Virus record (IMG/VR): IMGVR_UViG_3300032319_001025 | Coordinates: 64,001 to 128,000 of that record | Source: a virus | Lineage: Duplodnaviria > Caudoviricetes | Direction: 5' to 3' (one strand) | DNA length: 64,000 bases | Shown here: piece by piece, positions 15,901-63,163 of the stretch | Layout of the letters: each line of letters opens with the position of its first letter | Numbering within the stretch: position 1 is the first letter of the stretch | Program-made: the position numbers and the translations under genes | The notes under the pieces: model-generated | Seen by the model: the letters and a program-made list of their open reading frames with translations, nothing else | The model's database searches: none | Told to the model about the DNA's origin: nothing

Positions 15901-16663
15901 CGTATTGGGTCAAAAAAATATTGGCCAGTATGAAGTTCTAGATGATGCAGTTGATGGCTCATCTTTGTTCCCATCTGCTTCAACTGTTTATACAAAAGCA
16001 TTTACCGAAAACGCATCTTTAAAACCATTAAGCAATAAGACTGATCAATTCTTCTTTTTAGAAAAAACACCAGTCAAGCTTTACAAAAAGATTTTATCTG
16101 TCGGACCCGCTGAAGGCAGTTTAGCTAACGTGCTAGTAGACTCGCCTGAGTTAATAACAAGACTGACAAGCTCGAGCGGTGCTTATCTGACAATGCTAAA
16201 CAAGCTTAACTACGATACCAATATACACCATGGTATTGATGGCTATCAGTATTACACTGGCTTGATGCAAGAAGTCAACAAAGTAATATACGGCGATCCA
16301 ACTTCTGTGATCCAATATCCTGGATATAAAGCTGCTGGTGCTAACGTTGATATTAAACCTGCTATTATCAAAAAGATAACAATGTCGTTGAGCGTCAGAA
16401 TTAAAACCGATCTCACATATTCAGAAGTTCAAGATTCTGTTAAAGCCGCTGTAGCTGGATATATTGCAACTCTAGGTGTTGGTGAAAGCGTATCTTTATC
16501 TGGAGTTATAGCTACAGCAACAAACTTAGAAGGAATCGTATCGGTTGTTATAACTGACCCCACATTTGCTTTGGGTAGCGATTTAATTAAAGTTAACCCT
16601 GATGAGAAAGCTTTAGTAATTAATCCAGCCACGGATATAACTGTTACCATAACAGGTACTTAA
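9959..16663 (+). CDS. giant baseplate J-like wedge protein with inserted modules and CBM5/12-like repeats
   Basis: J-type N-terminus ('DLNPGSTL..IAE', 'GEALQRLA', 'IPAGTIV', 'GTIGNV', 'NGRDADSDENIRQRI') and C-terminus ('YIATLGVGESV..S.VI....LEGIVSV'). Confidence 0.8.
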   Translation: MANLPQLVTREQLIGLIVDSMLSRLEDVNDLNPGSTLSQIAESVGQVMYKPYADVISMVDALSVDRAIGEALQRLALDKNVPIFPALPSSGNINITDLTFSKIQSSVYSGQPAPVAGSLVVYVSDASQFLSSGTIYIGRGTDNSEGPLAYTSITPQSGGTYYAINLSPTSPTVKFHNIGETVVMGQGGNRTIPAGTIVQTPQGQLSTSVSFFTTLPATILDGEVTVENIPVVSQQTGTIGNVPKNAIQLVLNLGFSASSTNPLPFTNGRDADSDENIRQRIKDYEQLKAKGTSESIRAASLNITSPDELKTTTSSSVVNYSDTSAALVFDDGTGYEPIFTGVGLETVVAEALGGETNLQLRNIPIAQARLKTDVGYPYSVPDLYSLSVSVNGVATTHQFKSSDFKVATAATALEVASSINANANINFSANTSDGGKNVVIFPKDPTLNNIKVNTLSSNDANSYLKFPTDNEEFTLRLYKNDELLYQDGLPAQLYTKSKSLWSTGIIPNDTLIYNVDSTQDITVTLTNINFQRINPTSTVNSTESIDIWVEVFNSLMPGVTASVDGDKIKFASNKGLNDLARIEIVGGTLASKIFDTSAALISEGQSSDYTLNRNTSQVGLSVSVQEGDSITAGSKFTRAKILSTSLPNGVSTSGNLWFILDGGAEVIPSGIRGTTQIKFTLSGTTVTLNGRNILNTSIAEGFESVKAGDWILVWTNGSDGLQTNPGFWRIETAETGQLTFSNALGATTGWITNPPINKILFTRSLAPIQKVSYTGPATLASLESQIRSQLLGSNVDAVGSKLRISTATLDSTGEILCIAADESAASLLLTTGTVIKNTTSHVGFNITDDLNYGIPSFTHDTLSALNLATSEFTPTLDYIDLNGDTFDYIEFLDKFNTANESNVSESNKNRRIFVKNYDSLTGAVTGLIPNYMQTGQSIPQVSDRFFLRKSYQFDCEDTVNVTIDGNSETKYYSLPVSRNLLVSNAIVPTTTSFSADDAQSDLTLNDVNSFNGFDFADFKVWRKAHYNITNIITGLDINVHSASFGPSGNLTRFGFLYPTDTTQTSLSYTIDVSDTVDIGIVLPVKDLRLPTWDGTSAFTVSVLPGVNGEEYVTYQYRVGTQPSFVTTSNVSTDDIVMISGYSDLLNNNKDLTAIVTSVTPTSFTIKRQIGSATSDALAFDSIDIDGTVSGGFPSGKITLTYSGTHNISTGNRIGLYDTTALSLNPTSRPANSTYFVSSVSGSTIIVPINTSIPGGTITSATLNGATFKVYTNVTNLAAGDLIKFRNIGASFSNKIYQVSNVGVGYFECTINNTAGTFSIVAATRYDFQSYGADVTNASTISSVSRSGSTVTVTLSAAPPYTPSTGDLVQISGLNVQDWSSVTTYVIGDVIEYNSLLYKSLQNANLNNPPDISPTFWTLTDENLEGVFIVTNTGPLTFTYKYRSTAGSSSATGGTATKMKSVAKLARCIGGSSSYLQIMSVGATAQEIIDYVANNISDIISITNVTGGSTSATVSVSTENSSQYLTGNITNYRTTKSSRKVVFTTSAVVPKGSTITVSGISSDYNKTYTVLDSVASGGGSLITCQSEKTAATTGNNAVAGTYLGTLPYVMLYDGANSISTSDLTINPQFNLKQAWTDAPEIGEELCIVAANKEHLYRFWNRLIVSGIKNVANVENPKYNEELQISSQKLGTEGSVEVLSGTANSATVALVGSGKSQNNRLGLITIPYQLRQGLVPGNWISLSQTIQEKKTNGFDDTTVISVSTTSSIATVSIASGSGQFITKRSTSINNTTVFKVERHGNFTAFVKIDGTSPALYTAGVQEGDWVRIANVLPQTWNIGKSYIVGNKVKYGISETRYVSIQNGSGQQPDISPAYWKQYSDYSVNLSYSTGDYVLYSGRLWIALASSTPASPVIPGNDATVWKNFEFDVGNAGVYQVVRVYNQDTFWVEGDLVEEVTQILDPADMTFYSYDSIMPGDILVVSGDVLGQKNIGQYEVLDDAVDGSSLFPSASTVYTKAFTENASLKPLSNKTDQFFFLEKTPVKLYKKILSVGPAEGSLANVLVDSPELITRLTSSSGAYLTMLNKLNYDTNIHHGIDGYQYYTGLMQEVNKVIYGDPTSVIQYPGYKAAGANVDIKPAIIKKITMSLSVRIKTDLTYSEVQDSVKAAVAGYIATLGVGESVSLSGVIATATNLEGIVSVVITDPTFALGSDLIKVNPDEKALVINPATDITVTITGT

Positions 16664-19570: not shown

Positions 19571-22500
19571 ATGTCGGTTAAACGAAGATTAAAATTTTAC
19601 AGCGGTATTCGTCTTGATATACCACATATTCGTTCGCTAGAATCATCTGTATCTTATGATTTCGATTCGGCTTTGCGTGGTGTTATAACTGGCATATCTA
19701 GTCCATATGTTGTTAGAGGTTTTGATTTTGTTAATGCAACTGGACTACAAGCATCCAATCTTCAAATCAATGTTGCAAATAGCGTTATCTTACATAGCAC
19801 CGCTAGTGAAAGCGGTACAATCTTACAAGTACCTTCAACAGAATCAGTTCAAACATTAAATGCTTTAAACTCTAATGTTATCGGATCATTTCAAAATGGC
19901 GTAATCAACTACGTAGCTTTAGATTACAGAAGAGTTACTGACGAAAACTCAATCGATCAAACTGCTGGATGGTCACCCTCTGAAAAAATAGAGTTTCAAA
20001 GAACAGTGCCCATTTCTTCGGTGCTTGAATATAAGTTTGTAATTACAACTTCTGGCTTCGGCAACCTTTTACCTTTATATATAGTCGGCGTTGATTCAAA
20101 TGGATTTGTAACTTTTGTCACAAACTCTAAGCCTTCTCTATTTAGACTTGGTTCAGGTGGAGCTAATCCTAATCCGTTTAATTCTTTTGCTTTTGGAAAC
20201 CTAACCAATCCACAATCAGGCAACAGAAGAGAATATATTTACACTGGTTCAAGCACTACAAATCCTGTAAGTGTTTCTCCTGGTGATGATGCTAATGCTT
20301 TTGATTATGGTGACTGGTCTATTCATTCATTAAAAGAATGGATGGATGCAGTAATGACCAGGTTTAAAGAAATAACTGGTTCTGCATATTGGTACATAGA
20401 TAGCAACTTACCTTATGGTCCTGCAAGTTCTTTAAGTTTAGCTAACGTTTGGTTTGATTCTGGCGCTGGATCAGTAATGACTGGTGCTGGAAATATTGCA
20501 TACAATTATGTATTGCAAGCTGACTTAGCTTCTGGTTGGTCAACAGGTGTAACGTCTGGTGATTCGTATATTAAAGGTTCTTTGTCTGGTGCTACTGCTG
20601 TATTAAACTCTGTAATAAGCGATGCGACTTACGATTATTTATTAGTAACTGATGTTATAGGTAGTTTTGATTACGGCACTCCAGAACCTATCGTTAATAG
20701 AAGAATATTTAGACATAATTCGAGCTTATTTAATTTAACTACTTTCACTAGTGGCGGCTCGAGATATGCAATTTATCAAAGAATTCCAGTTTCAACTGCG
20801 ACTACTGTTGCAGCTACATTAGCTTCTGGACCTGGAACAGATGAGTATACAGTTACTTCAGCAGGCCATGGTTTATCTAATGGTAATATAGTTTGCATTA
20901 TAAACGGTACAAATAAAAAAGTAGTTTACGTACAAAATGCTGCGGCCAATACCTTCACTTTTAAAACGAAATACTTAAATGGTGTTGCAGTAGGTGCAAT
21001 TACACTGGCTAAAGTAACAGCTCAAGTAGACCAAAGCAAACATCCTTTTAAGTATAACTACACTTCTGGTGCAAGTTTTGATTTAGAAGTTAAAGACGCT
21101 AGCCCAGAAGCATATAATACATTTGACATATCTGCAAGTGCTTATTCTCCAGTTGATTTTGTTTACTCAATTGGTTCTAGTAGTTTGCCTGCACCTATTG
21201 ATGGTTCCGGCCCTATTATTTTTGATGGTGAAGTAACAAGTTCAAATGTTTCACCAGTTGGTGATTTGCCAGCAGGCGCTACATCTAATCCATATAACGG
21301 CCCAGTAAGTTGGGATAGCGACATATACATTAAAGGTATTGTAGGCAATAGATATTTTAAAGTACCTTCAACTGCTACCGCAGACCCTGCTGGAACTGCT
21401 GACATTTACGGAGCTGGCACTGCTTACTTAGAAAATGGTGAAGTAGCCTATATAGTTTTAGATAGAAATCAACCCGTAAGTAGCAGTCAATTGTTTTCAT
21501 GTGTTGCTGGCGGCCCAATAGTCGGATCTTCTACGCCAGTTGATTCTAGTGGTAATCCATTAGTAGCTGGCGACTTTGTTAAGTTTGCAAACGAAAGCGA
21601 TCAATACTGGCTAAAAATTGACAGTATTATAGGAAATACAATAACTGTAGTAAACGACAGCGGCGGAGCAGTTTCAACATTACAAAGACCTGCTAATAGC
21701 GGAGTTCTTTTGTATTCTAAAGGTTCTTACAGTACTGTTTATGTTGCACCACATTGGCAAGTAAATGCTAGCATTGATACTTACTGGTTAGCAGTTAGAA
21801 GAGACTTCTCTGGTGTTTCAAAAGTTTACTTTAGAGCATTAGAATTACAGCCTGGTGAATCAAGAACTATAAATGATAATCAATCAAATAATATTTTGAT
21901 TTATACTGGAGCTGGAACTGAAGCCGCTACCTCGCCTAACTATAGTCAAATAGATAACGGCCAATGGAGTAAAACCCAAACTCTAAAACTTCAATCATCA
22001 AACGCTATTGATACTTACAGCAAGCAAATAAGCTTTGTTGCAGCACCAAATCTTGGCTTCCAAAAAGAAGATAAACTCCAAGATGCTTCGGGCAATTTAT
22101 ATACTATTGAATCACTATTAACTAGTAAGACTGTTATAGTTAAAGAAGACGTTTCTGCATTAGTTAGTGGTGCGACCATAACTTATTATAGAATTAACTA
22201 CGCTATTGGCGAATCAGATAATTTGACACTAGCTGCTAGAAAAGAAGACAGGGAACTTGCAAAAGTTAATACTGAACTTTCAAGACCTGTATACGATGAA
22301 TCTGTCTATGTTCAAGACATGCCTTTAACTCTAAATCCAGGTAAAAATCTTAAGTCTGGAAGTTTTGTATATATTGGTACTCAAAATGCTCCAACCGCAC
22401 TAGCTTGGGTATTGTATGGTACTAGTGCTCAAACAGAAACTATTGAAGGTTCTTCAATAACAATGCCTGGAGGTTCTGTTTTTGGTGCAGGTAATTCATT

Positions 22501-23557
22501 AGTTCATATTTATAGCTCTGGTACAAATGGTGGATTTACTCACGGCTCTACAGTTTATCAAAATGGCGTGGCAATAGGTACTGTTAATAATGTTGCAAAT
22601 CCTGATTTTACAGCCCCTGCCATTTTAGCAACAAACTCTGTTGAAATGGTTTTACCGCCAAATAGAAGAACACAGGTTGTTAATGGCTCTACTTACTTAA
22701 CTTGGCCATCTAATTCGTTCTACAGTAAAGGCGATAGCTATTTATCTGGAGAAGATTTATTAGTTATTGCTAACGATAGCATTAGAGAAGCTAATATTGA
22801 CTATACTGAGACATTTGGCGGACCTAAAGCTAAAATTAGGATTGATAGAGACTTACCAGCCAATACAAGAATCAGGTTTAGGTCTTTAGGAACAGTTGGT
22901 TCTCCAGTTCACTCGAGCGGTGCTGGTATTATCGATTTACAATCTTCTTATAGTGCTGGCAACACAATTAATACATCTCTTTCAAACCCAGTTACTGTTA
23001 CAGCGACTGGAGCTGATACCGCTATTTCATTGACTGGTAATTTAGAAATCAATGGTGGCGGAACTAACGGTATATTTGGTAACACCGATCAAAATTTTGT
23101 AATTGGCGATGAAACAAATAAGCCAGCAGAATCTTGGACAGCTAAAGAATTTGTAAAAACTCATGCAAACTGGGCTAGCTCAGCGTGGTCTAATAAAACA
23201 GCGGTTCAAGTAACAACTAACAGTTCTCCTACTATTGTAACAGGTTCTGGTATTACAGTTAACACCAGTACAGTTGTTAGAGTTTGCATGACTGCTGTTG
23301 GCAGATCGAATACCAGTACTGGATATGCCTCGTTTAGAATTGAAGGTATGTTTAAACGAGAAGCTGGAAACGTTGTAGCAATTGGTTCGCCGATTAGTAC
23401 TATTATAGGTCAAGAAAATGATGGTACTTCCACCTCATTTATTTTTGGCGTTATGAATCCCGATACAATTTACGGTATATTAATTGGTAATCCATCTGTT
23501 CAGTTTAACTGGGCAACAACTATTGAATGGCAAGCAGTTAAAGATAGTGCTCCTTAA
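19571..23557 (+). CDS. large baseplate/tail fibre structural protein
   Basis: 1328 aa, Ser/Thr/Gly/Asn-rich beta composition, position between wedge and fibres. Confidence 0.65.
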   Translation: MSVKRRLKFYSGIRLDIPHIRSLESSVSYDFDSALRGVITGISSPYVVRGFDFVNATGLQASNLQINVANSVILHSTASESGTILQVPSTESVQTLNALNSNVIGSFQNGVINYVALDYRRVTDENSIDQTAGWSPSEKIEFQRTVPISSVLEYKFVITTSGFGNLLPLYIVGVDSNGFVTFVTNSKPSLFRLGSGGANPNPFNSFAFGNLTNPQSGNRREYIYTGSSTTNPVSVSPGDDANAFDYGDWSIHSLKEWMDAVMTRFKEITGSAYWYIDSNLPYGPASSLSLANVWFDSGAGSVMTGAGNIAYNYVLQADLASGWSTGVTSGDSYIKGSLSGATAVLNSVISDATYDYLLVTDVIGSFDYGTPEPIVNRRIFRHNSSLFNLTTFTSGGSRYAIYQRIPVSTATTVAATLASGPGTDEYTVTSAGHGLSNGNIVCIINGTNKKVVYVQNAAANTFTFKTKYLNGVAVGAITLAKVTAQVDQSKHPFKYNYTSGASFDLEVKDASPEAYNTFDISASAYSPVDFVYSIGSSSLPAPIDGSGPIIFDGEVTSSNVSPVGDLPAGATSNPYNGPVSWDSDIYIKGIVGNRYFKVPSTATADPAGTADIYGAGTAYLENGEVAYIVLDRNQPVSSSQLFSCVAGGPIVGSSTPVDSSGNPLVAGDFVKFANESDQYWLKIDSIIGNTITVVNDSGGAVSTLQRPANSGVLLYSKGSYSTVYVAPHWQVNASIDTYWLAVRRDFSGVSKVYFRALELQPGESRTINDNQSNNILIYTGAGTEAATSPNYSQIDNGQWSKTQTLKLQSSNAIDTYSKQISFVAAPNLGFQKEDKLQDASGNLYTIESLLTSKTVIVKEDVSALVSGATITYYRINYAIGESDNLTLAARKEDRELAKVNTELSRPVYDESVYVQDMPLTLNPGKNLKSGSFVYIGTQNAPTALAWVLYGTSAQTETIEGSSITMPGGSVFGAGNSLVHIYSSGTNGGFTHGSTVYQNGVAIGTVNNVANPDFTAPAILATNSVEMVLPPNRRTQVVNGSTYLTWPSNSFYSKGDSYLSGEDLLVIANDSIREANIDYTETFGGPKAKIRIDRDLPANTRIRFRSLGTVGSPVHSSGAGIIDLQSSYSAGNTINTSLSNPVTVTATGADTAISLTGNLEINGGGTNGIFGNTDQNFVIGDETNKPAESWTAKEFVKTHANWASSAWSNKTAVQVTTNSSPTIVTGSGITVNTSTVVRVCMTAVGRSNTSTGYASFRIEGMFKREAGNVVAIGSPISTIIGQENDGTSTSFIFGVMNPDTIYGILIGNPSVQFNWATTIEWQAVKDSAP

Positions 23558-28207: not shown

Positions 28208-28954
28208 TCATCTGTTTTCCATATTTTTTAATAGTTTACCGCTAAGTACGGCTGTTGCTTGTGATGTGCCAGTTAAAGGTTTACCGTTTTGATCTTCTAC
28301 CCTCTCGCCTAAAGCCCAGTTTGTAACTGCGTGACCATAGTTAGAATGGCCCATTTTCTTACCTTCTGCGCTTAAGCTGCCAACTACGTAAAGGTTTTTA
28401 TTAGGCTTTAAACAAGCTGGAAAAAAGTTACATTTTTCATCTAAATTTGAACCATTGTTACCAGCAGCCACTACAACCTTGATATTTGAACTAAGAGCTT
28501 TCTTAACAACTTGATCTTCGCTAAGGCTGTAGCTTTCACCGCCACCACTAAAATTTATTAGGGCAGCTTTTAATTCAATTGCGTATTCAATTCCTTGAAG
28601 TTCTTTTCTTAAGTTACTAGAGAAAAAAAGTGATGTGGACAAATAATATTTAACTGAAAGAATACAGTATTTTTTCTTGTTAAAGCTTTTAATGATTTGC
28701 CAAGCAACGTTAGTTCCGTGACCGTTATAGTCAAAAAGACCTTCTCCAGTGTAATCTCTGTGACCATTAACACAAAGGTAAGGTGTAACTTTATTATCTT
28801 TAAAGTTAATACCAGTATCAAGAACTACAACTGGGATTCTTTTGTCGGTAAATTTTGACAGATAAAGCATTTCGGTTGCTTGATCGTTATCAAAAGCAAA
28901 TGAAACATTGGTTAATGTTAGGATTATTAGTAATGCTAATTTAACGTTTCCCAT
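28208..28954 (-). CDS. exported subtilisin-like serine protease (S8)
   Basis: Triad motifs VVVLDTG, GHGT, GTSQATA and oxyanion AAGN; start reassigned to ATG 28954 giving signal peptide MGNVKLALLIILTLTNVSFA. Confidence 0.85.
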   Translation of the reverse strand: MGNVKLALLIILTLTNVSFAFDNDQATEMLYLSKFTDKRIPVVVLDTGINFKDNKVTPYLCVNGHRDYTGEGLFDYNGHGTNVAWQIIKSFNKKKYCILSVKYYLSTSLFFSSNLRKELQGIEYAIELKAALINFSGGGESYSLSEDQVVKKALSSNIKVVVAAGNNGSNLDEKCNFFPACLKPNKNLYVVGSLSAEGKKMGHSNYGHAVTNWALGERVEDQNGKPLTGTSQATAVLSGKLLKNMENR

Positions 28955-29501
28955 TCTTAAGTCCCTTCCTGAGTATGAATATATCATACAGGGACTTTTT
29001 AACAATTTCAAGTGGGAAAGGCAGCGATTTTTTAAGTAAATCTACGATTTTATTAACTTTTTTAAGACTTCTAGACTCTACTTCAATAAATACCCTCTTA
29101 TCGTTAACTACTTGATATACGCTGACATTTGTATCAAACCTGTCTAAAAATAATACAGTATATCTTTTCTTTAAGTTTTTCGGCTTCTTACCGTATTCTG
29201 CTGTTTTAAGCTTAATAGCTTGGTCTACATCAATCACATCTAGGTCGATTTCTAGTCTATCTAGATTATCGCCTTTATCGCACTTTTTAACGGTCATTTG
29301 ACCTTTGCCTTTTTTACTCTTCTCCATTTGTCTTACTCGGACAAAATCTACTGCTGGAGCTGGCCAATAATAATCAGTTCTTTCATCAGTAATAGTATGA
29401 ATAGGTTTAAATAGGTTTCTGCAAAAGTCGTCAATCTTCTTTAAACTATTGCAACCTTTAACTAGTAGCTTTACTTCTATTTCCCTATTCTTGTATCCCA
29501 T
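28941..29501 (-). CDS. CYTH / triphosphate tunnel metalloenzyme (class IV adenylate cyclase-like)
   Basis: EIEVK (ExExK), RVRQ, TVKK, EID, KKRY, FIEVE motifs. Confidence 0.8.
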   Translation of the reverse strand: MGYKNREIEVKLLVKGCNSLKKIDDFCRNLFKPIHTITDERTDYYWPAPAVDFVRVRQMEKSKKGKGQMTVKKCDKGDNLDRLEIDLDVIDVDQAIKLKTAEYGKKPKNLKKRYTVLFLDRFDTNVSVYQVVNDKRVFIEVESRSLKKVNKIVDLLKKSLPFPLEIVKKSLYDIFILRKGLKNGKR

Positions 29502-36598: not shown

Positions 36599-37048
36599 TT
36601 ATTCTCTAGCTAATTTGCATTTAGAGCACTGTTCATATGAATCTTGTAATCCATGAACAATTTCATATTCATGTTTGCATTCTTCAGATTCTTCGAACCC
36701 ATTTAAAAATTCAAATTCGTAATGAAATCTTACCGCTTCAACATCTGTGAGAAGAGCGGCCTGTTTTTCGCCTTCCCTATTTTGATATTGAATAGCCACG
36801 GCCTGATAAGCTGTTTTTTCTTTATTTTCATTTTCCTTTATAACTTCTGGATTTATCAATTCTACAATTTCATTTTCACTAACTTTTAACAAAATAATCC
36901 GCTTATTAAGTCCAACTTTTGGAGCTGCAAGACTGGAATTGCCGTTTTCTTTAAGAGTTCTAACCAAGGAATCTAACTTTTTATTTAAACTAACATTGAA
37001 GCTTTTAACTTTTGCTGGTTTTGATTTAAATTTTTTATCTGCTTTCAT
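36599..37048 (-). CDS. peptide deformylase-like protein, catalytically degenerate
   Basis: 'SSLAAPKVG' (GxGLAAxQ), 'LINPEVI', no EGCLS, 'HYEFEFLNG' instead of QHExxHLxG. Confidence 0.7.
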   Translation of the reverse strand: MKADKKFKSKPAKVKSFNVSLNKKLDSLVRTLKENGNSSLAAPKVGLNKRIILLKVSENEIVELINPEVIKENENKEKTAYQAVAIQYQNREGEKQAALLTDVEAVRFHYEFEFLNGFEESEECKHEYEIVHGLQDSYEQCSKCKLARE

Positions 37049-37603: not shown

Positions 37604-37861
37604 TCATTTATTGTATTTACCGCACAATGCAAAATATCTATTATCTTCAATTTTTTTAAACTTTTTTAGGCATGGTAGGTCTTTATATAAGACCTTGCAC
37701 CTACCTTTTGCTTTTTCCATGACTTCTTGATCATGTTCATTCCATTTAACCCTATCTAAAGTTACGTTTTTAGTAACTGGACAAGATCCTGCGTAACTAT
37801 ATGAATAAATTAAAAAAAATAATAAAAATAAATATCTCATGTTAATTACCAGAACTTCCAA
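37604..37861 (-). CDS. small exported Cys-rich protein
   Basis: Signal peptide MRYLFLLFFLIYSYSYA, four Cys. Confidence 0.6.
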   Translation of the reverse strand: MEVLVINMRYLFLLFFLIYSYSYAGSCPVTKNVTLDRVKWNEHDQEVMEKAKGRCKVLYKDLPCLKKFKKIEDNRYFALCGKYNK

Positions 37862-38270
37862 AAGATTTAGAACCTCTTTCAGAGCAACTTAAATCTTTAG
37901 ATTCTACCAGTTCAACCTTTGCTACGGGTAAAATAATTAACTGTGCTACCTTATCGCCAATTTTATAGTGTAAATCTTCCTCTGTCAAATTAAGTTTTCT
38001 GAGCCTAACTTTGATACTATCTCTATATCCAGGATCAATTACACCGACAGAATTGGCTAACATGCAGTCATAATTAGATATACTAGATCTTGGAAACAAT
38101 AAGCCTACATGATTTTCTGGTATCTCAATAGCTATACCAGTATCAAATTCAATATACAGATCGTTTTCTTTTAAAAATACCATGGCATGTAAATCTAGCC
38201 CAGCATCTCCTGGATTAGCCTGTTTAGGTATTTCAGCGTCTGGATGGGTTTTTTTAATTTTAATTTTCAT
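37842..38270 (-). CDS. dut: trimeric dUTPase
   Basis: AGLDL, PRSS, GVIDPGYR, AQL, RG.KSFGSSG motifs; start reassigned to MKIKIKK. Confidence 0.92.
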   Translation of the reverse strand: MKIKIKKTHPDAEIPKQANPGDAGLDLHAMVFLKENDLYIEFDTGIAIEIPENHVGLLFPRSSISNYDCMLANSVGVIDPGYRDSIKVRLRKLNLTEEDLHYKIGDKVAQLIILPVAKVELVESKDLSCSERGSKSFGSSGN

Positions 38271-38538
38271 TATCGATGTCGTATAGATAGCTTTTAGGTC
38301 TTGGGGTAAACATGTCATTTTCATCCAAAAGGTCCCAATTCTCTACATCGTTATTTTTAATTAAAAAATTATACAACTTATCAATACGCCAAGGTCTTCC
38401 CATTGATCCTAAATTCCAATATTCAATGTTAAAATAACTGCCTACAGCATCTTTGCCAGTGTATTTTACAATTCTTATGCAAATATCTTTAAATTTTTTA
38501 TGTTTGTAAAACTCATTTGGTATGAATATGTCTTCCAT
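38260..38538 (-). CDS. hypothetical protein
   Basis: 92 aa in operon. Confidence 0.6.
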   Translation of the reverse strand: MEDIFIPNEFYKHKKFKDICIRIVKYTGKDAVGSYFNIEYWNLGSMGRPWRIDKLYNFLIKNNDVENWDLLDENDMFTPRPKSYLYDIDNEN

Positions 38539-39215: not shown

Positions 39216-39758
39216 TTAATTCAATGGTTTACTGATATCAAAAATAAATTTATCTATTGCGGTTTCTTTATAAAGACTAAATGGTGTTACCATATAATAC
39301 ATTACGTCATCGGGATTAGGTGAATGCTCAAGCCCAGCACAATGACCTAATTCGTGCCATACTACAGATTCTAATATTTGATTTTCAAAAGCGGTTGGAA
39401 AAAGCTCTATAACGCAAGTTTCTTGTTGTACATATGCTTGCCCAGCAATATTTAAACCGTTTTTAGAATCGCTTTCACTATGATCAACCATTTTAAATGT
39501 TATTTTTTGGTGATTTACAATGTCTTCAGTAAAAGATAAAAAAGGTTTTGAATTTCTTGAGTTTAAATCGTTTATTAAACTTATTATATTGCTTTTGTCG
39601 TTTTCAGTAAAATTTTCAAACCCTTCAATTTTAGCTGGCCAAGAAATACAATTTTTTCCGCAACTTACCAAATTAAAAACCGCAAGAATAAAAATAAGTC
39701 TAACGGCAATATAAGCTAATTTTAAGCTTAAAATGACTTCTTTTTTGTTTTTTGTCAT
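39216..39758 (-). CDS. matrixin-like (M10) zinc metalloprotease lipoprotein
   Basis: HELGHCAGLEH (HExxHxxGxxH), Met-turn 'DVMY', lipobox LVSC. Confidence 0.85.
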   Translation of the reverse strand: MTKNKKEVILSLKLAYIAVRLIFILAVFNLVSCGKNCISWPAKIEGFENFTENDKSNIISLINDLNSRNSKPFLSFTEDIVNHQKITFKMVDHSESDSKNGLNIAGQAYVQQETCVIELFPTAFENQILESVVWHELGHCAGLEHSPNPDDVMYYMVTPFSLYKETAIDKFIFDISKPLN

Positions 39759-52188: not shown

Positions 52189-52827
52189 TTATTTCGATTC
52201 CGAACTATTTTTAAAGTTATATACATTAAGTACAGTAAAGCTACTTGTTTCTTTCTTTCCGTCTTTTAATTCTACTTCATTAGTAAAAGTATCTCCAGCC
52301 TTTAGCCCTAAAAGCTTTGGTCTCAAAGCGTCCTCTTTAGGTACTTCGGAAATCTGTACTGGTCTATAGTTAGATACAGTTACAGTTCCTTGAGCTGTAG
52401 AAACTTCGTGTTTTAAAATTAAAACGGACTCTTCGCTGGATTCTGTAGTATCCACCAATAGTCCAGATGACTTCAAGGATTCCATTTTTTCTTTTTCATT
52501 GGCTTCATCTATAGCTCTAAGCTCGGCCATAATTTCATTGTCTTCAATTAGTTTATGCTTAACTAAAACTTTAGTAAAAGCTGTTAGTAACTTGCCAAGA
52601 CTGATTACTGTTTGCTCTAGGGCCAGGTTTTGATCTACAATAGCTTTTAAAGCAGACTGAGCATTAGTAGCAAGGTTTGAAACTTTTTGATCTGTTGTAT
52701 CAACCTTTGTAGTAAGCTCTTGAACGTTTGATTGTAATGAAGAGGTTTTGCCTTCAAGTACAGTATTTTTAGCTTTAACTTCAAATACCGATTCTTCTAA
52801 CTTTACTAATGTATCTGTTTGACTCAT
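52189..52827 (-). CDS. coiled-coil protein with FKBP/Gre-type C-terminal domain
   Basis: Long heptads then 'LLGLKAGDTF..EV.......FTVLNVY'. Confidence 0.55.
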   Translation of the reverse strand: MSQTDTLVKLEESVFEVKAKNTVLEGKTSSLQSNVQELTTKVDTTDQKVSNLATNAQSALKAIVDQNLALEQTVISLGKLLTAFTKVLVKHKLIEDNEIMAELRAIDEANEKEKMESLKSSGLLVDTTESSEESVLILKHEVSTAQGTVTVSNYRPVQISEVPKEDALRPKLLGLKAGDTFTNEVELKDGKKETSSFTVLNVYNFKNSSESK

Positions 52828-54489: not shown

Positions 54490-56163
54490 TTACACAATAT
54501 AGCTGTTTTTACCGTCAAATTCAACATTAATTAATTTTTCAAAAGATTCTTTCATTTCAGTAGAATGGTCAACTATAAGTATTAAACCATTAATATTCTT
54601 TTTAATTGTTTCCATTGCACATCTTTTTGTTTCTATATCTAAACCATCCATTGCTTCATCTAGTGCTACCCAATTGAATTTGATTCCCGATCTATTTCTT
54701 ATAATTTCGCTTATGGCTAAATCAAAACATAATTCTAATGCACATATTTGTCCGCCAGACAATGTTTTAATTTGTATTTCTTTTTCAAGTTTTTGCAATC
54801 TAATAGTAATGTTATTTTTGATGTTTCCATTTTTGTTTATCTGGGATGAGTCAATAGAAACTGAAAAAGTGGACAAGTTTGGTATTTCTGATATTAAAGA
54901 ATTAACTCTTGTTTCTAGCTCTTGCAGTAACTCATCGAAAATAAAACCTAAAAAACCTTGATTGCTTAATATTTTTAAACAATGTGAATATCTTTCAATT
55001 TCGGATTTAATCTGTTTTTGTTTGCCTTCTTTTAGTTCAATATCTTTAAGTACGGATATATATTTATTTTTCTTTTCTGTCAAAACGCTTAATACGTTTT
55101 TAGCCATATTAAGTTTTTCAATAATTTCTTTGGCTCTGGAAGATTCATTTCCAGTTTTTTGTACAATTTTGTCATACTCTGATTGTAAATCGTTTAAATT
55201 AATAGATAACTTGTCTGATTCTAGTATTGATTGTTCGTTTTCTTCTATTTGTTTTTTTAAGGTAGAAATAAATATTTTTTTACGTTCAATAATATCTTCA
55301 TTTTTTTTCCAAAATTGCAAGCATGTCGGACATTTTTCATCTTGCATGTGTTCTAGTTCATTTTCTATAATTTTAATTTTTGATTTAAAATCAATGTTTT
55401 GCTGTTTTTTGGTATAAGCTTGGTTAATAATTGAACCAATTTTTGATATTTCTAATTTTATTTGATTTAATTTATTAGTATTTTCAATAAGTTCTTTATT
55501 GGCTTTTATAGAATCAATTTCTTGTTTATAGTTAATGTAAGATTGCTCAGCATTTTTGTATTCTTCTTCATCAACCTTCCAGCTATCTAAATTAAATTTT
55601 AAAAACTGCAGTTCTCTATCAAAAGATTCTAAATTTAAATTTTTTGAATCATGTTGGTTTTTGATATTACTATAGGCTGTATCTATATCGGACAGTTGTA
55701 GCATTTCTCTTAATAAGGTTTTTTTCTCACTATCTGGAGATCTTAAAAACGACCCTGGTTCTCTTTGTGGTCTATACGTAAGGATTTTTAAAAAGTCGGA
55801 ATTAACTCCTAATACTTTATCTAATTTTTCTTGAGCGGAAGTTCCAGTAAAAGTTTCTCCAGATACGGTTAATTGCAATTTTGGATTCCTGACTATCTCT
55901 ATGATTTCATTGTTGTTTTTTAATTGTAACTTGACATAAAAAGATTTTGAATTCCAATTTTTTAGCTCTGTTGCTGGCAAATCACAAAAACCTAGTGCGT
56001 AGGCTATCGCCATAAGAATAGAACTTTTACCCGATCCTGAAGATATTTGTTCATTCTTGTATTTTCCAGATATTAATACGGCACCAGATTCTGGAAATTC
56101 AATTTCTGTTTTTTCTTTGAAAGAACGAAATCCTTCAAGTTCTATTTTTGATAGAGAAAACAT
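54490..56163 (-). CDS. sbcC: SbcC/Rad50/gp46-like SMC ATPase
   Basis: 'GFRSF', Walker A GSGKSS, CPTC zinc hook, LSGGQ, LDE, VDH. Confidence 0.9.
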   Translation of the reverse strand: MFSLSKIELEGFRSFKEKTEIEFPESGAVLISGKYKNEQISSGSGKSSILMAIAYALGFCDLPATELKNWNSKSFYVKLQLKNNNEIIEIVRNPKLQLTVSGETFTGTSAQEKLDKVLGVNSDFLKILTYRPQREPGSFLRSPDSEKKTLLREMLQLSDIDTAYSNIKNQHDSKNLNLESFDRELQFLKFNLDSWKVDEEEYKNAEQSYINYKQEIDSIKANKELIENTNKLNQIKLEISKIGSIINQAYTKKQQNIDFKSKIKIIENELEHMQDEKCPTCLQFWKKNEDIIERKKIFISTLKKQIEENEQSILESDKLSINLNDLQSEYDKIVQKTGNESSRAKEIIEKLNMAKNVLSVLTEKKNKYISVLKDIELKEGKQKQIKSEIERYSHCLKILSNQGFLGFIFDELLQELETRVNSLISEIPNLSTFSVSIDSSQINKNGNIKNNITIRLQKLEKEIQIKTLSGGQICALELCFDLAISEIIRNRSGIKFNWVALDEAMDGLDIETKRCAMETIKKNINGLILIVDHSTEMKESFEKLINVEFDGKNSYIV

Positions 56164-57191
56164 TACTTTTTTAGTCTATCACAGAATTCTTCAAAAGTCG
56201 AATTGCTACACCCCGCGGAAAGCCTGAAGTATTCATCTGTCATACCAGCTCCAGCGCCTTTTTTAACCTTAACCCCAAAATTGTCCATCATATGTTTAAA
56301 ACCATCTGAACCATCTTTAGTTTTACACCAAATAAACATTCCATTGTTTTTTTTATTTAAAATATCAAAAGTTAAATCATTTTTTAAACTTATTAATTTA
56401 TCCCATCTTCTTTTTAATTCTTTTGCCCCATATGAAAAACAATCGTTTCCGCTTTTATTTTCTAAAAGCTCGCTTTGAATGCCTAAAATAAGCCTTGCGC
56501 GCTCTTGAGCTTCATTGCTTGTCCCCACGGTTGTATTTTCTACATAATCTTCCATTATAGAAGCTATTTCAGGATCTCTTACTATTCCCCAACCTATTCT
56601 TGTAGCAGCATGTCCAGTGCTCTTAGATAGACTGAAAGCCATAATATCCATGTCATTCAATACTGTATTTTCTAGATATTGTGGCCATTGATATGATAAA
56701 TCGTATATCTTTTGCTTTGTAGAAGATTCCGAAACTCTTAATTCGTTATCTGGGTTGTTTGGTGTAGTAATAAGCTCAATCGGGTTTAAGCTTTTGTCGC
56801 TATCGTCATCTACTAATTTTAGTTTAGAAATTCTTACAAAATCTGGAAACCTGAAATAATATGGTTTTTTAACAATAACTGAATCATTACCGTATTTTTT
56901 ATAGTATGCGTACATTGCAGCCAATAAAATATGAGTAACTCCGTTACCAACTATTATATGTTTTTCTTCTGCATTAGCGTTACCAGCAGCTTTATGTATT
57001 CTTCTGATAGTTTCTTTCATTTCTTCGGTAGTATTAAAAATATAATCCATTCCGAAGTTTGGAGGAAAGCTTAATTTAGAATATTCAATTCCGTGGGGGG
57101 TCATAGATAGATCTAAGTTTTTCCAATAATCTTCTAAAAACTTAGGAGATCCTTTGGCTAAATCTAAAATTGTTTTATTCGTCTGGTTCAT
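56163..57191 (-). CDS. PLP-dependent fold-type-I enzyme, alliinase/TAA1 (tryptophan aminotransferase-related) family
   Basis: 'G.P..LE.YW', 'IHKAAGNA', 'IIVGNG.T', 'IELITTPNNPD', 'YDLSYQWPQY', 'SKSTGHAATRIGW' (PLP Lys), C-terminal 'FRLS'. Confidence 0.8.
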   Translation of the reverse strand: MNQTNKTILDLAKGSPKFLEDYWKNLDLSMTPHGIEYSKLSFPPNFGMDYIFNTTEEMKETIRRIHKAAGNANAEEKHIIVGNGVTHILLAAMYAYYKKYGNDSVIVKKPYYFRFPDFVRISKLKLVDDDSDKSLNPIELITTPNNPDNELRVSESSTKQKIYDLSYQWPQYLENTVLNDMDIMAFSLSKSTGHAATRIGWGIVRDPEIASIMEDYVENTTVGTSNEAQERARLILGIQSELLENKSGNDCFSYGAKELKRRWDKLISLKNDLTFDILNKKNNGMFIWCKTKDGSDGFKHMMDNFGVKVKKGAGAGMTDEYFRLSAGCSNSTFEEFCDRLKK

Positions 57192-57429
57192 TTGTGTCTG
57201 CTCTGCTTTTGTCGTTTCTTTCGCCCATCAATTCTTCAACATTATGTATTCTTTCAACGGCCCTACTCATTGCGCCGTTATCTAATCTTTCATAAACAAC
57301 TGTAGTACCAACTTTAGGTACAAACAAAGAAGGTTCATTACATTTTTTACATGGCATAGTTTTTTCTCTTTTAGGCAATGATGCCTTAAAAGTGCCATGA
57401 GTATTACATTTATAAGTAAACCAGCCCAT
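57175..57429 (-). CDS. FmdB-like zinc-ribbon protein
   Basis: 'FTYKCNTHGTF...PCKKC'. Confidence 0.6.
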   Translation of the reverse strand: MGWFTYKCNTHGTFKASLPKREKTMPCKKCNEPSLFVPKVGTTVVYERLDNGAMSRAVERIHNVEELMGERNDKSRADTNEPDE

Positions 57430-59186
57430 TATTCTCTAAGACCAGCACCTTTTTCAAAACGCCTTACGAATCTTTCTTCTTCCTTATCTGATTGATCATC
57501 TCTTTTAAATGCTATTAAGCCGCCCATTGTACCTAAAAGCGAGGCTATAGACATACTATTTCTAATGGCTTCTAGTACAGCGGGGGCAGAATCTAGAACA
57601 TCAATTCTGTCTCTCCATTCATACTCAGAAAGATCAAAAGTTTGATCATCTTTTTGTAATAGTTGACCAATCATACTATCTATTTCTTGTTCGTTAAATC
57701 CATAGTTTTTATATAATATTTTTACTGGTTCAACTAAAGCATCCGAAAGAATATTAATTGCAATTTTCCTACATTCATTTTTTTCTTTTCTACCAAGTTC
57801 TAGTAAGTCTGCTGCAATTCTAACTAGTGTGTAACCTCCGCCTGGCACAGCACCGTATTTAACGGCTCCTCTAATTGCCATCCAAGCATCTTCTGCTCTG
57901 TCTCTTTTTTCTCGAGTTTCACCTTGGCTTAATCCGTAAATATTTAAACGTGCAATCCCACTAGTTAATTTTCCTATTCTAACGTCTAATTCGTGTGCTT
58001 CATATTGGCTTTCTGGTTTTTCTCTTCTTAACTTTAGCTCTTGAACTCTAGTTTCAATTAAGCTTTCATCCTCATCCACCATTATTGAACTTCTAAATCT
58101 TCCAACCTCAATATTTTTTACACGATTTCTTTTAATTAAAAAATCGATGTTCATGTCTATAAGAGGTCTGTCGATTGGGTTAAACACAGGAGACCCAGTA
58201 TATGCTTGTAAATCGTAAAGCTGCTCAGTTCTTGAATTTATTGTAGCAGATTGTGTGGTTACAATTGGAAAAACTTTAAATGTCCCTTTATTCCAGTTAA
58301 GATGCAAATCTCCAACTACACTATCAGAAAACCCGTGCGAAACTACTACAATTCCTGTTGTAAGATGTGAATTTTCTGCAAAATATTGACCAATTTTGTT
58401 CATTGGTTCTAAGATTTGAGAAATATCATTAATAGTACCGTCAAATAAAAGAACAAGAGGTTTTTCTAGAACAACCATTGTTCCGCTTTTATCATTAATA
58501 AACCCAGTTGAAAAATTTCTACAAGATTCTTCGTACCCTTTATCTAGGGTATATCCAGATATTTTTTCAATTTCATACTTAGATGGGCCTGTTGCTTCAA
58601 TAATAGTGATATTGCCCTCATCACCTACAGTATTAAAAGATTCAATGATTGCATCAGCAAGTTCTTTATCCCCATTTGCTGATAGTGTGGCAACTTTATG
58701 TAGAATAGATTCTGAATTTTCACCATCAACTTTAATTTTATAAGAATCTATAACTTCGGAAATATAAGGGATTAGGTTCTGTAATTCCCTGACTATTTTT
58801 TGGGGGCTAAGTTTTGGATTTTTTTCAACTAATTTAGAAGTTCTTTTGGTAATACTTTCAGCAAGAATTGTAGCTGTAGTGGTTCCATCTCCAGCTTCGG
58901 AAGCTGTTCTGACAGCAGCATCTCTAACAGCCTCTAACACCAACTGTTGAGTTGCGGATTCATAACCTAAATTTTTAATAACAGTAACACCGTCTTTTGT
59001 CATTATAGGTTTTAATCCAATTTCTGGTCTTTCAATTAAAACCTGTCTTCCTCCAGGTCCAAGTGTAGCTCCAACCATTTTTGCAATGTGTTCCATCGTT
59101 TCTAAAACAATGTTTTTAAGTTCTTGACCTGGTGCAACCATTACTTTAGAAGCAGATTTTGGTTTATTAACTTGAAAAAGACTCAT
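57429..59186 (-). CDS. groEL: phage chaperonin GroEL
   Basis: TLGPGG, TKDGVTV, GDGTTTAT, 'EKRDRAEDA', G.VPGGG; no GGM tail. Confidence 0.93.
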   Translation of the reverse strand: MSLFQVNKPKSASKVMVAPGQELKNIVLETMEHIAKMVGATLGPGGRQVLIERPEIGLKPIMTKDGVTVIKNLGYESATQQLVLEAVRDAAVRTASEAGDGTTTATILAESITKRTSKLVEKNPKLSPQKIVRELQNLIPYISEVIDSYKIKVDGENSESILHKVATLSANGDKELADAIIESFNTVGDEGNITIIEATGPSKYEIEKISGYTLDKGYEESCRNFSTGFINDKSGTMVVLEKPLVLLFDGTINDISQILEPMNKIGQYFAENSHLTTGIVVVSHGFSDSVVGDLHLNWNKGTFKVFPIVTTQSATINSRTEQLYDLQAYTGSPVFNPIDRPLIDMNIDFLIKRNRVKNIEVGRFRSSIMVDEDESLIETRVQELKLRREKPESQYEAHELDVRIGKLTSGIARLNIYGLSQGETREKRDRAEDAWMAIRGAVKYGAVPGGGYTLVRIAADLLELGRKEKNECRKIAINILSDALVEPVKILYKNYGFNEQEIDSMIGQLLQKDDQTFDLSEYEWRDRIDVLDSAPAVLEAIRNSMSIASLLGTMGGLIAFKRDDQSDKEEERFVRRFEKGAGLRE

Positions 59187-62158: not shown

Positions 62159-63163
62159 ATGTCTCAAAAAATATTTTATAGATTTGTTGCTGAGATGAGT
62201 GAAATACTCAATAACAGCACGTTTAATTATGATGATCAAAAAAAGCTTTTAAAAAAGCTTTTTGCTGTTGAGAAAAAGTTTAAAGATACTTTACTCTCTA
62301 CTCCAAATGGCAGAAACGTTTATAAATCTTTTATGAAATTCATTCTTAATGATCAAAAAAACATATTGGCAGCTAGGATTTATTTTAGAGAAAGACAAGA
62401 TACTTTTTCAAATAAAATAGCTAAAGCTTTTCATCAAAACAAACCAGAAAAGCTTTTTAAATTTAGAATCAATTATGTATTTGCTGTATGGGCATGTAAA
62501 AATATAAAAAGAAAAAATAAAAAATTATTGAGACTTTTAGAGGATATGAAAACCTTAAGAAACAATCTTTGCGAAATGAATTTACCTTTAGCTATTAATA
62601 GATCTAAGATTTTTTGGTCTAAAATACCAGATTCCCATCTAGAATACATGGATTTAATACAAACCTCGTCCGAAGGTCTTTTAATTGCTATAGATAAATT
62701 TGTGCCCCCATTTAAGTTAGTTTTCCGTTCTGTTGCAATCGGAAGAATGGTTGCTTACATGATTGAGGATAATAGCGAAACAATAATCAAATTATCCCCT
62801 ACTGAAAGAAGAATACTTTATTTAATAAACAAAGCTAAAAACACTGAAAAAGCTGAAAATGAAGATGAAATTCTTAAATTTGTAAAAAAATCGTTTCCAA
62901 ATGTAACTAAAGAACATTTAAATGAATTAATGAACGCATCAAAAACAGTAAACATTGATATTTCAGCAAACAAGAATGAATCAGATAAAGATTCTATGCA
63001 AAAAAAAGAAGCTGACATTTTTTTTAAGTCTTCAAATAATTTAGAAGAAGACATTGTTAATAATGATTTAAAAAGAAAGCTTGTACCAGCAACAAAAAAT
63101 CTTTCAGTTTTAGAAAAAAAGGTATTATCTTTAACATATGGAATTAATTTTTTAAAGGAGTAA
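62159..63163 (+). CDS. sigma-70-family factor lacking region 4.2
   Basis: 'EMNLPLAI', 'DLIQ...GLLIAIDKF', region 3, region 4.1 'LSVLEKKVLSLTYGI' then stop. Confidence 0.8.
   Translation: MSQKIFYRFVAEMSEILNNSTFNYDDQKKLLKKLFAVEKKFKDTLLSTPNGRNVYKSFMKFILNDQKNILAARIYFRERQDTFSNKIAKAFHQNKPEKLFKFRINYVFAVWACKNIKRKNKKLLRLLEDMKTLRNNLCEMNLPLAINRSKIFWSKIPDSHLEYMDLIQTSSEGLLIAIDKFVPPFKLVFRSVAIGRMVAYMIEDNSETIIKLSPTERRILYLINKAKNTEKAENEDEILKFVKKSFPNVTKEHLNELMNASKTVNIDISANKNESDKDSMQKKEADIFFKSSNNLEEDIVNNDLKRKLVPATKNLSVLEKKVLSLTYGINFLKE

Follow-up and report, generated by a model that had tools for sequence, protein, structure and literature searches.

The ALL gene and its family

We analysed a 64,000-nucleotide stretch of phage DNA, here called the window, which covers bases 64,001 to 128,000 of the 144,013-bp IMG/VR record IMGVR_UViG_3300032319_001025; this record has direct terminal repeats and is rated 100% complete. 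On the minus strand of the window, an open reading frame (ORF) with an ATG start encodes a protein of 342 amino acids (aa), called ALL (Table 1). An earlier note, made from the letters of the window alone, had described this gene as a phage-encoded homologue of the plant enzymes TAA1 and alliinase, which depend on pyridoxal 5'-phosphate (PLP). The phage origin holds, given the phage gene set in the window and the complete virus record with its terminal repeats.

Table 1. Features at the ALL locus, in window coordinates
Feature	Position	Strand	Remarks
SbcC-like recombination ATPase, downstream of ALL	54490..56163	-	phrog_77, E = 1.2e-41; homologous to the Mx1 'recombination endonuclease'
ALL gene, TAA1/alliinase-family (Alliinase_C) PLP enzyme by sequence and model	56163..57191	-	ORF, PF04864, PDB matches, AlphaFold2/Foldseek, dN/dS
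R323 codon, predicted binder of the substrate alpha-carboxylate	56223..56225	-	Invariant in alignment A1, at least 90% in alignment A2
K190 codon, Schiff-base (PLP) lysine, motif SLSK	56622..56624	-	Invariant in 91 aligned homologues; aligns with TAA1 K217; codon checked
N146, D164 and Y167 codons, motifs TPNNPD and DLSYQWPQY	56691..56756	-	Invariant columns; codons checked
R114 codon, clade-specific motif PYxxRFP, candidate specificity residue	56850..56852	-	Arg in 91% of phage-type rows
84-aa Zn-ribbon-like protein (c32), upstream of ALL	57175..57429	-	17-nt overlap of its 3' end with the ALL start; conserved upstream neighbour in G000 (the carrier phage genome), L002, L005, L038 and L064
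GroEL-type chaperonin, upstream, same string	57429..59186	-	Full-length; phrog_5725, E = 1.2e-90; 43% identical to Mx1 GroEL

The Pfam profile PF04864 (Alliinase_C) matches ALL over profile positions 2-361 of 363 with E = 3.4e-60 and 204.3 bits, against a gathering score of 22 bits, whereas the generic profile PF00155 (Aminotran_1_2) yields just 47.9 bits. This comparison bears out the assignment in the earlier note to the TAA1/alliinase family rather than to a generic aspartate aminotransferase (AspAT) or HisC. In a phmmer search of the PDB sequences with ALL, the best match was TAA1 (3bwn; E = 1.4e-40, 143 bits), followed by garlic alliinase (2hor and 1lk9; approximately 1e-30, 110 bits); the next aminotransferase appeared at E = 0.009. 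With an alignment of 91 sequences as input, AlphaFold2 gave a model with a pLDDT of 96.6 and a pTM of 0.93. By superposing this model on known structures with Foldseek, TAA1 (3bwn/3bwo) was matched with E = 1e-30 and TM scores of 0.87-0.89, and alliinase (1lk9) with E = 8e-27 and a TM score of 0.89. Generic class I aminotransferases, kynurenine aminotransferases and carbon-sulfur (C-S) lyases follow only from 1e-16, a gap of ten orders of magnitude below TAA1 and alliinase.

The motifs named in the earlier note are present in ALL in the expected order: GSPKFLEDYW, HKAAGNA, IIVGNGVT, IELITTPNNPD, DLSYQWPQY, SKSTGHAATRIGW, GTSNEAQER and ELKRRWDKL; the plant 'AYYWP' reads 'SYQWP' in ALL. The PLP lysine and the C-terminal arginine, also said to be retained, are K190 and R323. 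The opposite outcome, in which the gene would lack an Alliinase_C match and fall inside the ordinary class I/II aminotransferases, is clearly contradicted by the Pfam, PDB and Foldseek results and by the trees described below.

The EGF-like N-terminal domain (PF04863) was not found in ALL, whose Pfam matches are confined to PF04864 and PF00155; the N-terminus of ALL aligns with residue 59 of alliinase, that is, with the start of the catalytic core. In the NCBIfam scan no specific model matched, generic aminotransferase models reaching at most 37 bits against cut-offs of 276-647. Similarly, PHROGs gave only a weak C-terminal match to phrog_5879 (unknown function), and PADLOC gave no defence or anti-defence match. 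No fused form of the phage-type protein was found; PF04863 was seen in a single long homologue, that of Monosiga, which is weak evidence. Because the profile, PDB, fold, residue and dimer-model evidence agree, ALL is, as judged from sequence and model, a true member of the TAA1/alliinase family that appears competent, and not an ordinary AspC- or HisC-type enzyme. That it is a functional member of this family carried by a phage we regard as almost certain.

Catalytic residues, candidate specificity motif and predicted dimer

Plants, Parmales and other eukaryotes are represented among the 91 aligned homologues, in which Y50, N146, D164, Y167 and K190 are invariant, and G14, R198, R262 and R323 are kept in at least 90%. 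Of these, Y50, N146, D164, Y167, K190, R198 and R323 are conserved in alignments of 21 to 91 homologues. The set of PLP and carboxylate ligands (the lysine of S.SK, the asparagine of NNP, the aspartate and tyrosine of D..Y, the phosphate arginine and the C-terminal arginine) is thus complete in ALL. By analogy with N194, D222 and Y225 of AspAT, we take N146, D164 and Y167 to be ligands of the cofactor ring and its O3' atom. Similarly, the carboxylate role of R323 is assumed from R386 of AspAT and R401 of alliinase.

On the other hand, two motifs next to the pocket differ between ALL and the eukaryotic enzymes: ALL has PYYFRFP against PYYSSYP, and SYQWPQY against AYYWPHY. In the first of these, Arg114 of the pattern PYxxRFP is present in 91% of the rows of the compact phage clade, whereas the eukaryotic rows have PYYSSYP at the same place. 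R114 lies two residues past the ring-stacking tyrosine and inside the modelled dimer interface; it would be comparable to position 142 of AspAT. By this analogy R114 might point into the pocket for the substrate side chain and select for a negatively charged substrate or co-substrate, which we offer only as a lead.

A two-copy model of ALL with PLP scored 0.94, the best control reaching 0.00, with a contact agreement of at least 97% and pLDDT values of at least 94. Of 30 proteins solved as pairs, 20 attained this mark, against one of 23 solved as single chains. The modelled interface holds residues 40-51, R114 and residues 193-199. ALL is therefore predicted by the model to be a homodimer with its active site at the interface; this pass may reflect likeness to known dimers, because the TAA1 and alliinase dimers have already been solved.

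Gene neighbourhood and history of ALL

ALL is embedded in an overlapping early/replication gene string with the order GroEL, c32, ALL, SbcC, RuvC, in which the start codon of the SbcC-like gene overlaps the stop codon of ALL. No minus-strand terminator-like site was found inside the string, and the promoter and terminator scans gave the same counts as shuffled sequences. ALL is probably co-transcribed with the early/middle replication, recombination and chaperonin genes. A look-up listed no RNA data sets with the ALL sequence; its DNA was found in one run, the probable source. The small c32 protein gave no match to a Pfam family. It shows the pattern C..HG...C..C followed by a conserved ERLDNG.M.RAVER.HN.EE, and it always follows GroEL in this phage group.

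The order GroEL-c32-ALL-SbcC-RuvC recurs in the IMG/VR contigs L002, L005 and L038 and in the metagenome contigs L048, L059, L064, L072 and L079, whose GC contents span 31-51%; L072 and L079 cover the string from ALL onwards only, and in L059 the place of c32 is taken by an unclustered ORF of 97 aa. The identity of the ALL copies to that of the window (86, 36 and 33%) tracks that of SbcC (84, 37 and 34%) and of RuvC (83, 43 and 44%). Compared with the 86%-identical copy of L002, ALL has a dN/dS of 0.08, at a dS of approximately 1.2, which is near saturation. A tree in which the syntenic ALL copies were forced together was not rejected (approximately unbiased (AU) test, p-AU = 0.85) and lay 29 log-likelihood units above the quick free tree. 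Because ALL diverges together with its flanks, the monophyly of the syntenic copies is not rejected and the dN/dS is 0.08, the sequences indicate that in this lineage it is old, vertically kept and constrained by purifying selection.

The closest cultured relative of the carrier, Myxococcus phage Mx1 (L125; OR576727, 160122-169621), presents a different picture. There, GroEL, a c32 homologue (93 aa, 30% identity, E = 5e-9; L125 2509-2790) and SbcC are directly adjacent, so that the site is empty and holds no ALL. Two related uncultured lineages have GroEL and SbcC close together and carry ALL at other places: behind DnaB and ClpP in an Mx1-like genome of 169 kb, and near the start of the contig in a genome of 135 kb whose DnaE shares 47% identity with that of the window. 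Three different insertion sites are thus seen among related lineages. From the empty site of Mx1 and these differing positions, it follows, on comparative grounds, that ALL is an accessory gene that has been repeatedly gained, moved or lost.

The empty site of Mx1 could also be taken to mean that ALL is an inactive or decaying passenger. We consider this reading hardly credible: the catalytic residues are all intact, the fold is predicted with high confidence, the dN/dS is low, and the position is kept while the divergence follows that of the flanks down to approximately 35% identity.

The carrier phage

The carrier is a 144-kb myophage related, distantly, to Mx1 (34% identity for DnaE, 43% for GroEL). 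Genes for baseplate, tail and tail-fibre proteins and for an endolysin make up the plus-strand block of the window (1-26 kb). Those of the minus-strand block code for DnaB, primase, a UvsX/RecA-like protein, a DnaE-type polymerase, an SbcD-like protein, SbcC, RuvC, GroEL and a DnaD-like protein, and in addition a peptide deformylase, a dUTPase, a subtilase and a matrixin-like peptidase. The GC content of the ALL gene (32.8%) matches that of the genome (33.7%).

Several other genes of this phage were recorded. Peptide deformylase (36599-37048, minus strand) and dUTPase (37842-38324, minus strand) have homologues in most of the other ALL-bearing phage genomes compared. The early region further holds the subtilase (Peptidase_S8; 28208-29011, minus strand) and a small matrixin-type HExxH protein (39216-39758, minus strand). 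A sigma-70-like protein is encoded at 62159-63163 (plus strand), with weak NCBIfam matches to RpoD, FliA and ECF models that are all far under the cut-offs. The tail and baseplate block contains two very large ORFs, one of 2234 aa (9959-16663, plus strand) and one of 1328 aa (19571-23557, plus strand), the latter with no PHROG match. A 212-aa protein (52189-52827, minus strand) has a weak match, far under the cut-off (E = 1.2e-3), to an NCBIfam model for a Bdellovibrio predatory-vesicle lipoprotein (Bd0635-like). Taken together with the Bdellovibrionales/Bdellovibrionia homologues of ALL described below, this match gives a faint hint of the host lineage.

Outside the window, the carrier genome has a match to the C-terminal domain of MetK (G000:C1:58219-58644, minus strand; E = 2e-54), which lies inside a 393-aa open frame. 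The presence of GroEL, peptide deformylase and MetK on one phage would fit a general investment in protein production, without pointing to a substrate of ALL.

Distribution of ALL homologues

Relatives of ALL were found with a profile-derived pattern scan on 40 IMG/VR contigs, which represent many unrelated phage types. The same kind of pattern-limited scan over one genome per species from 185,579 prokaryote species gave two matches. One is on an 8.8-kb contig of a Bdellovibrionales metagenome-assembled genome (MAG), with chromosomal-looking neighbours (a beta-helix protein, a DUF4423 regulator and a GDPD enzyme); the other is a fragment at a contig end of a Blastocatellia MAG. When 401 genomes from each of these two phyla were searched with the profile, the strong matches were the two starting genomes only, together with one weak 60-bit match that is probably a generic aminotransferase. 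The chromosomal-looking homologues form a small clade, solely from Bdellovibrionales/Bdellovibrionia bacterial MAGs. Homologues of ALL are accordingly very rare in bacterial genomes.

In metagenomes, compact homologues were seen at 15 loci with a length of 6 kb or more, and 13 of these loci share terminase, portal, SbcC, ribonucleotide reductase (RNR) and other genes with viral contigs; the remaining two (L066 and L073) have few shared genes and mainly short ORFs. Metagenome loci in which the match is broken into pieces look eukaryotic. In L101, L106 and L107 the homologous region is split over about three consecutive short ORFs, which resembles intron-containing algal or protist genes.

Three divergent phage ALL queries gave no tblastn match in 50,697 GenBank phage records. 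The search of BFVD returned nothing closer than the generic class I aminotransferase fold, the best match being an LL-diaminopimelate aminotransferase of a giant virus (TM 0.76, 13% identity). The ESM Atlas contains a neighbouring cluster of 53 members, of which 83% are viral, and an exhaustive HMMER search returned 878 representative homologues at E values of at most 1e-3, most of the top 150 being 290-360 aa long. In general, the compact phage-type clade consists of proteins of approximately 300-355 aa that lack the EGF-like domain and occur mainly on phages. The NCBI pipeline names such homologues 'aminotransferase class I/II-fold PLP-dependent enzyme'.

Phylogeny and horizontal transfer

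Two trees were computed, one with FastTree (206 rows) and one with IQ-TREE (LG+C20 with posterior mean site frequencies, quick mode; 87 rows including six class I outgroups). Both separate the TAA1/alliinase family from the ordinary aminotransferases; in the IQ-TREE analysis, the 81 family rows are split from the six outgroups with a support of 99 in the Shimodaira-Hasegawa-like approximate likelihood-ratio test (SH-aLRT). Both also recover a single eukaryotic clade (plant TAR2, Parmales and Monosiga; SH-aLRT/SH-like support 99), and both place the ALL of the window in a five-member clade with P0002-P0006, inside the large compact phage-type group. ALL therefore groups with phage and metagenome sequences, inside the family clade and outside the eukaryotic TAA/TAR part of it. 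The Mx1-like and some other viral ALL sequences branch deeper.

When rooted, the quick IQ-TREE tree had the eukaryotes nested inside the phage diversity. This was dropped: in the AU test, a tree with all phage and bacterial rows as one clade was not rejected (p = 0.563), and it was even slightly better than the free tree. Because constrained searches beat the free search twice, only the coarse topology is trusted, namely that the clades are distinct and that, on these alignments, phage lineages appear on at least two deep branches. The suggestion that a phage copy could bear on horizontal transfer in this family thus has a real basis in the distinct phage and eukaryotic clades, and the AU test favours no particular direction.

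A bolder reading takes the entire eukaryotic TAA/alliinase family to have come from the compact phage-borne enzymes, or to have in them its nearest sister still in existence, and holds that their PLP reaction is novel, perhaps with an acidic or otherwise non-aromatic substrate chosen by Arg114, and manipulates host metabolism. We regard this as a long shot. If true, it would mean that the first enzyme of plant auxin synthesis traces to a phage or bacterial gene pool.

Partners, reaction and substrate

Based on the results presented above, ALL would be a working, stand-alone, homodimeric PLP enzyme, acting most likely on the alpha-amino group of a free L-amino acid. The preferred mechanism would be a reversible, TAA1-like transamination with an amino acid and a 2-oxo acid as partners, and as an auxiliary metabolic gene ALL would shift the amino-acid or 2-oxo-acid pools of the infected cell. 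This explanation, taken as a whole and including the functional phage family member, has in our judgement about an even chance of being right; that ALL is an aminotransferase is somewhat less than an even call. The sequence and model data establish that ALL belongs to the family, has the fold and the full catalytic set, is under purifying selection and is carried by phages, with the distribution given above; what it catalyses, on which substrate and to what advantage for the phage we infer from the comparisons that follow.

The gene neighbourhoods offer no lasting partner. No neighbour is conserved across the phage lineages; those seen are varied and include a PD-(D/E)XK nuclease, ClpP, terminase and portal, RNR, a CYTH protein, a metallopeptidase and glycosyltransferases. 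A small ORF often lies upstream of ALL, and it is unrelated between lineages. In six diverse complete or near-complete carriers of 80-169 kb, ALL is the only gene cluster held in common at the BLAST level. Among 32 ALL-bearing viral records, a YUCCA-type flavin-containing monooxygenase (FMO; PF00743) was found in none, including the nine that are at least 90% complete, and MetK in one, the carrier itself. A link to methionine or S-adenosylmethionine was therefore rejected, as was a phage-borne TAA-YUC pathway. Since there is no conserved partner, no YUCCA or MetK link, no PADLOC match and no fusion, ALL most likely acts by itself, with a free amino acid as its substrate, and by analogy the strictly conserved carboxylate arginine R323 fits such a substrate.

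The earlier note had proposed an auxiliary metabolic gene, for an auxin (indole-3-acetic acid) precursor or for the cleavage of sulfur compounds, or else a step in DNA or protein modification. In favour of the first, general part, the enzyme is encoded on a bona fide phage genome, is under selection and does not belong to the replication or structural core, being absent from the syntenic site of Mx1 and differently placed in related lineages. The specific roles are not established, as set out for each below.

For the auxin-precursor role, ALL would be a tryptophan or aromatic aminotransferase, whose indole-3-pyruvate or other arylpyruvates would serve as auxin-type or other signals, or which would drain aromatic amino acids. 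TAA1 is the best match of ALL in both sequence and fold, and the automatic, provisional labels of IMG name the homologues P0006 and P0013 'L-tryptophan--pyruvate aminotransferase'. However, none of the 32 records encodes the YUCCA-type enzyme, ALL lies outside the eukaryotic clade, and the motifs next to the pocket differ from those of the plant enzymes as described above. On balance this role is improbable.

A second alternative is that ALL acts as a C-S (beta-) lyase like alliinase, with cysteine, cystine, cystathionine or an S-substituted cysteine (or the sulfoxide of the latter) as substrate and with pyruvate, ammonia and either a thiol, a persulfide or a sulfenic acid as products, and that it could thereby provide phage processes with sulfur or remove a sulfur metabolite of the host. 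Alliinase is structurally as close to ALL as TAA1 is (TM 0.89), its sequence match is also strong (E of approximately 1e-30), and the catalytic residues are common to both plant enzymes. In addition, the bacterial C-S lyases MalY and PatB, which have the class I fold, show that this fold switches readily to beta-elimination. On the other hand, ALL lacks the EGF-like N-terminal domain of true alliinases and of TAR3/4, TAA1 outscores alliinase in the sequence search, and no sulfur-metabolism gene occurs among the conserved neighbours. Beta-elimination in this fold and family depends mainly on a substrate with a beta leaving group; because of this need, and because TAA1 is a broad aminotransferase, transamination is favoured over the lyase reaction, which we consider rather unlikely. 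TAA1 is described as a reversible and rather broad amino-acid:pyruvate enzyme (PMC9231625, PMC9309667).

Alternatively, ALL might serve outside central amino-acid metabolism, as one step in a modification or biosynthetic pathway whose product could be a hypermodified DNA base, a glycan or amino sugar of the virion, or a secondary metabolite. PLP enzymes do take part in the hypermodification of thymidine in phages, ALL lies within a DNA-metabolism module with SbcC, RuvC, DnaE and dUTPase, and the neighbours in one group of contigs include a glycosyltransferase and a pyruvyl transferase. Yet no pathway partner is kept across the phage lineages, which leaves the DNA- or protein-modification step of the earlier note not established; ALL is the sole gene shared by the six diverse carriers; and the conservation of R323 suits a free amino acid. 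We hold this alternative, too, to be improbable. The contigs concerned (L029-L031; IMG/VR, 114-369 kb, GC 57-61%) carry a distant ALL homologue that adjoins the glycosyltransferase and the polysaccharide pyruvyl transferase, and they are the sole lineage that hints at glycan chemistry.

Several points nevertheless weigh against a transaminase with a free amino acid as its substrate. Since the catalytic residues of TAA1 and alliinase are the same, the sequence cannot separate a transaminase from a beta-lyase, which also leaves the sulfur-compound cleavage not established. R114 and the Q/N substitutions in D..Y.WP.Y suggest, from the alignment, a substrate unlike that of TAA1. The lack of a partner gene, with MetK and the YUCCA-type FMO as scarce as they are, provides no metabolic rationale for the phage. 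Finally, Mx1 is without ALL at the syntenic site, so the gene is dispensable for that kind of phage.

Comparison with known enzymes and implications

The tryptophan:pyruvate aminotransferases TAA1, TAR1 and TAR2 of Arabidopsis (3bwn, 3bwo) are the closest known enzymes: they share PF04864 with ALL, give its best sequence and fold matches, and have the lysine (K217) with which K190 aligns. TAA1 and ALL have in common the signatures G.P..YW, SPNNPD, D..Y.WP.Y, SK.TGHA..RIGW and RW; both are without the EGF-like domain, and both are homodimers (ALL by model). ALL is about 50 aa shorter than TAA1 (342 vs 391 aa), with 27-29% identity over the Foldseek-aligned columns, and it is approximately 30-32% identical to plant TAR2 (MAFFT). 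Unlike TAA1, it has the clade-specific residues R114/F115 and the Q/N replacements in D..Y.WP.Y, is phage-borne without a YUCCA partner, and falls outside the eukaryotic clade.

Alliinase of garlic and onion (alliin lyase, which forms the allicin of garlic; 1lk9, 2hor, 2hox) and plant TAR3/TAR4 are of the same family, fold and catalytic residues as ALL. They differ from it by PF04863, which ALL lacks, by their length (approximately 430-450 vs 342 aa) and, for alliinase, by a lower sequence score than that of TAA1; nothing indicates sulfoxide substrates for ALL. The ordinary class I enzymes (AspC, HisC, YbdL, MalY and PatB; PF00155) have the same fold-type I architecture and PLP chemistry. Their likeness to ALL is weak (48 bits with PF00155, 1e-16 in Foldseek), and they are outgroups outside the family.

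PF04864 has been described as nearly restricted to plants and some protists (10.1101/2024.03.19.585368; PMC9309667), and the origin of the TAA genes is disputed, a bacterial origin being among the proposals (PMC5611494, PMC4754409, PMC10015382). Full-text literature searches that combined alliinase with phage returned nothing relevant, and no publication on the phage clade was found. A large, diverse and selected phage clade alters the sampling that underlies this dispute, and it offers enzymology a set of compact homologues that look soluble. To the phage biologist, ALL is a widespread accessory gene; because it is the sole gene common to otherwise unrelated carriers, knowing what it acts on may uncover a new route by which phages redirect the amino-acid or sulfur metabolism of their hosts.

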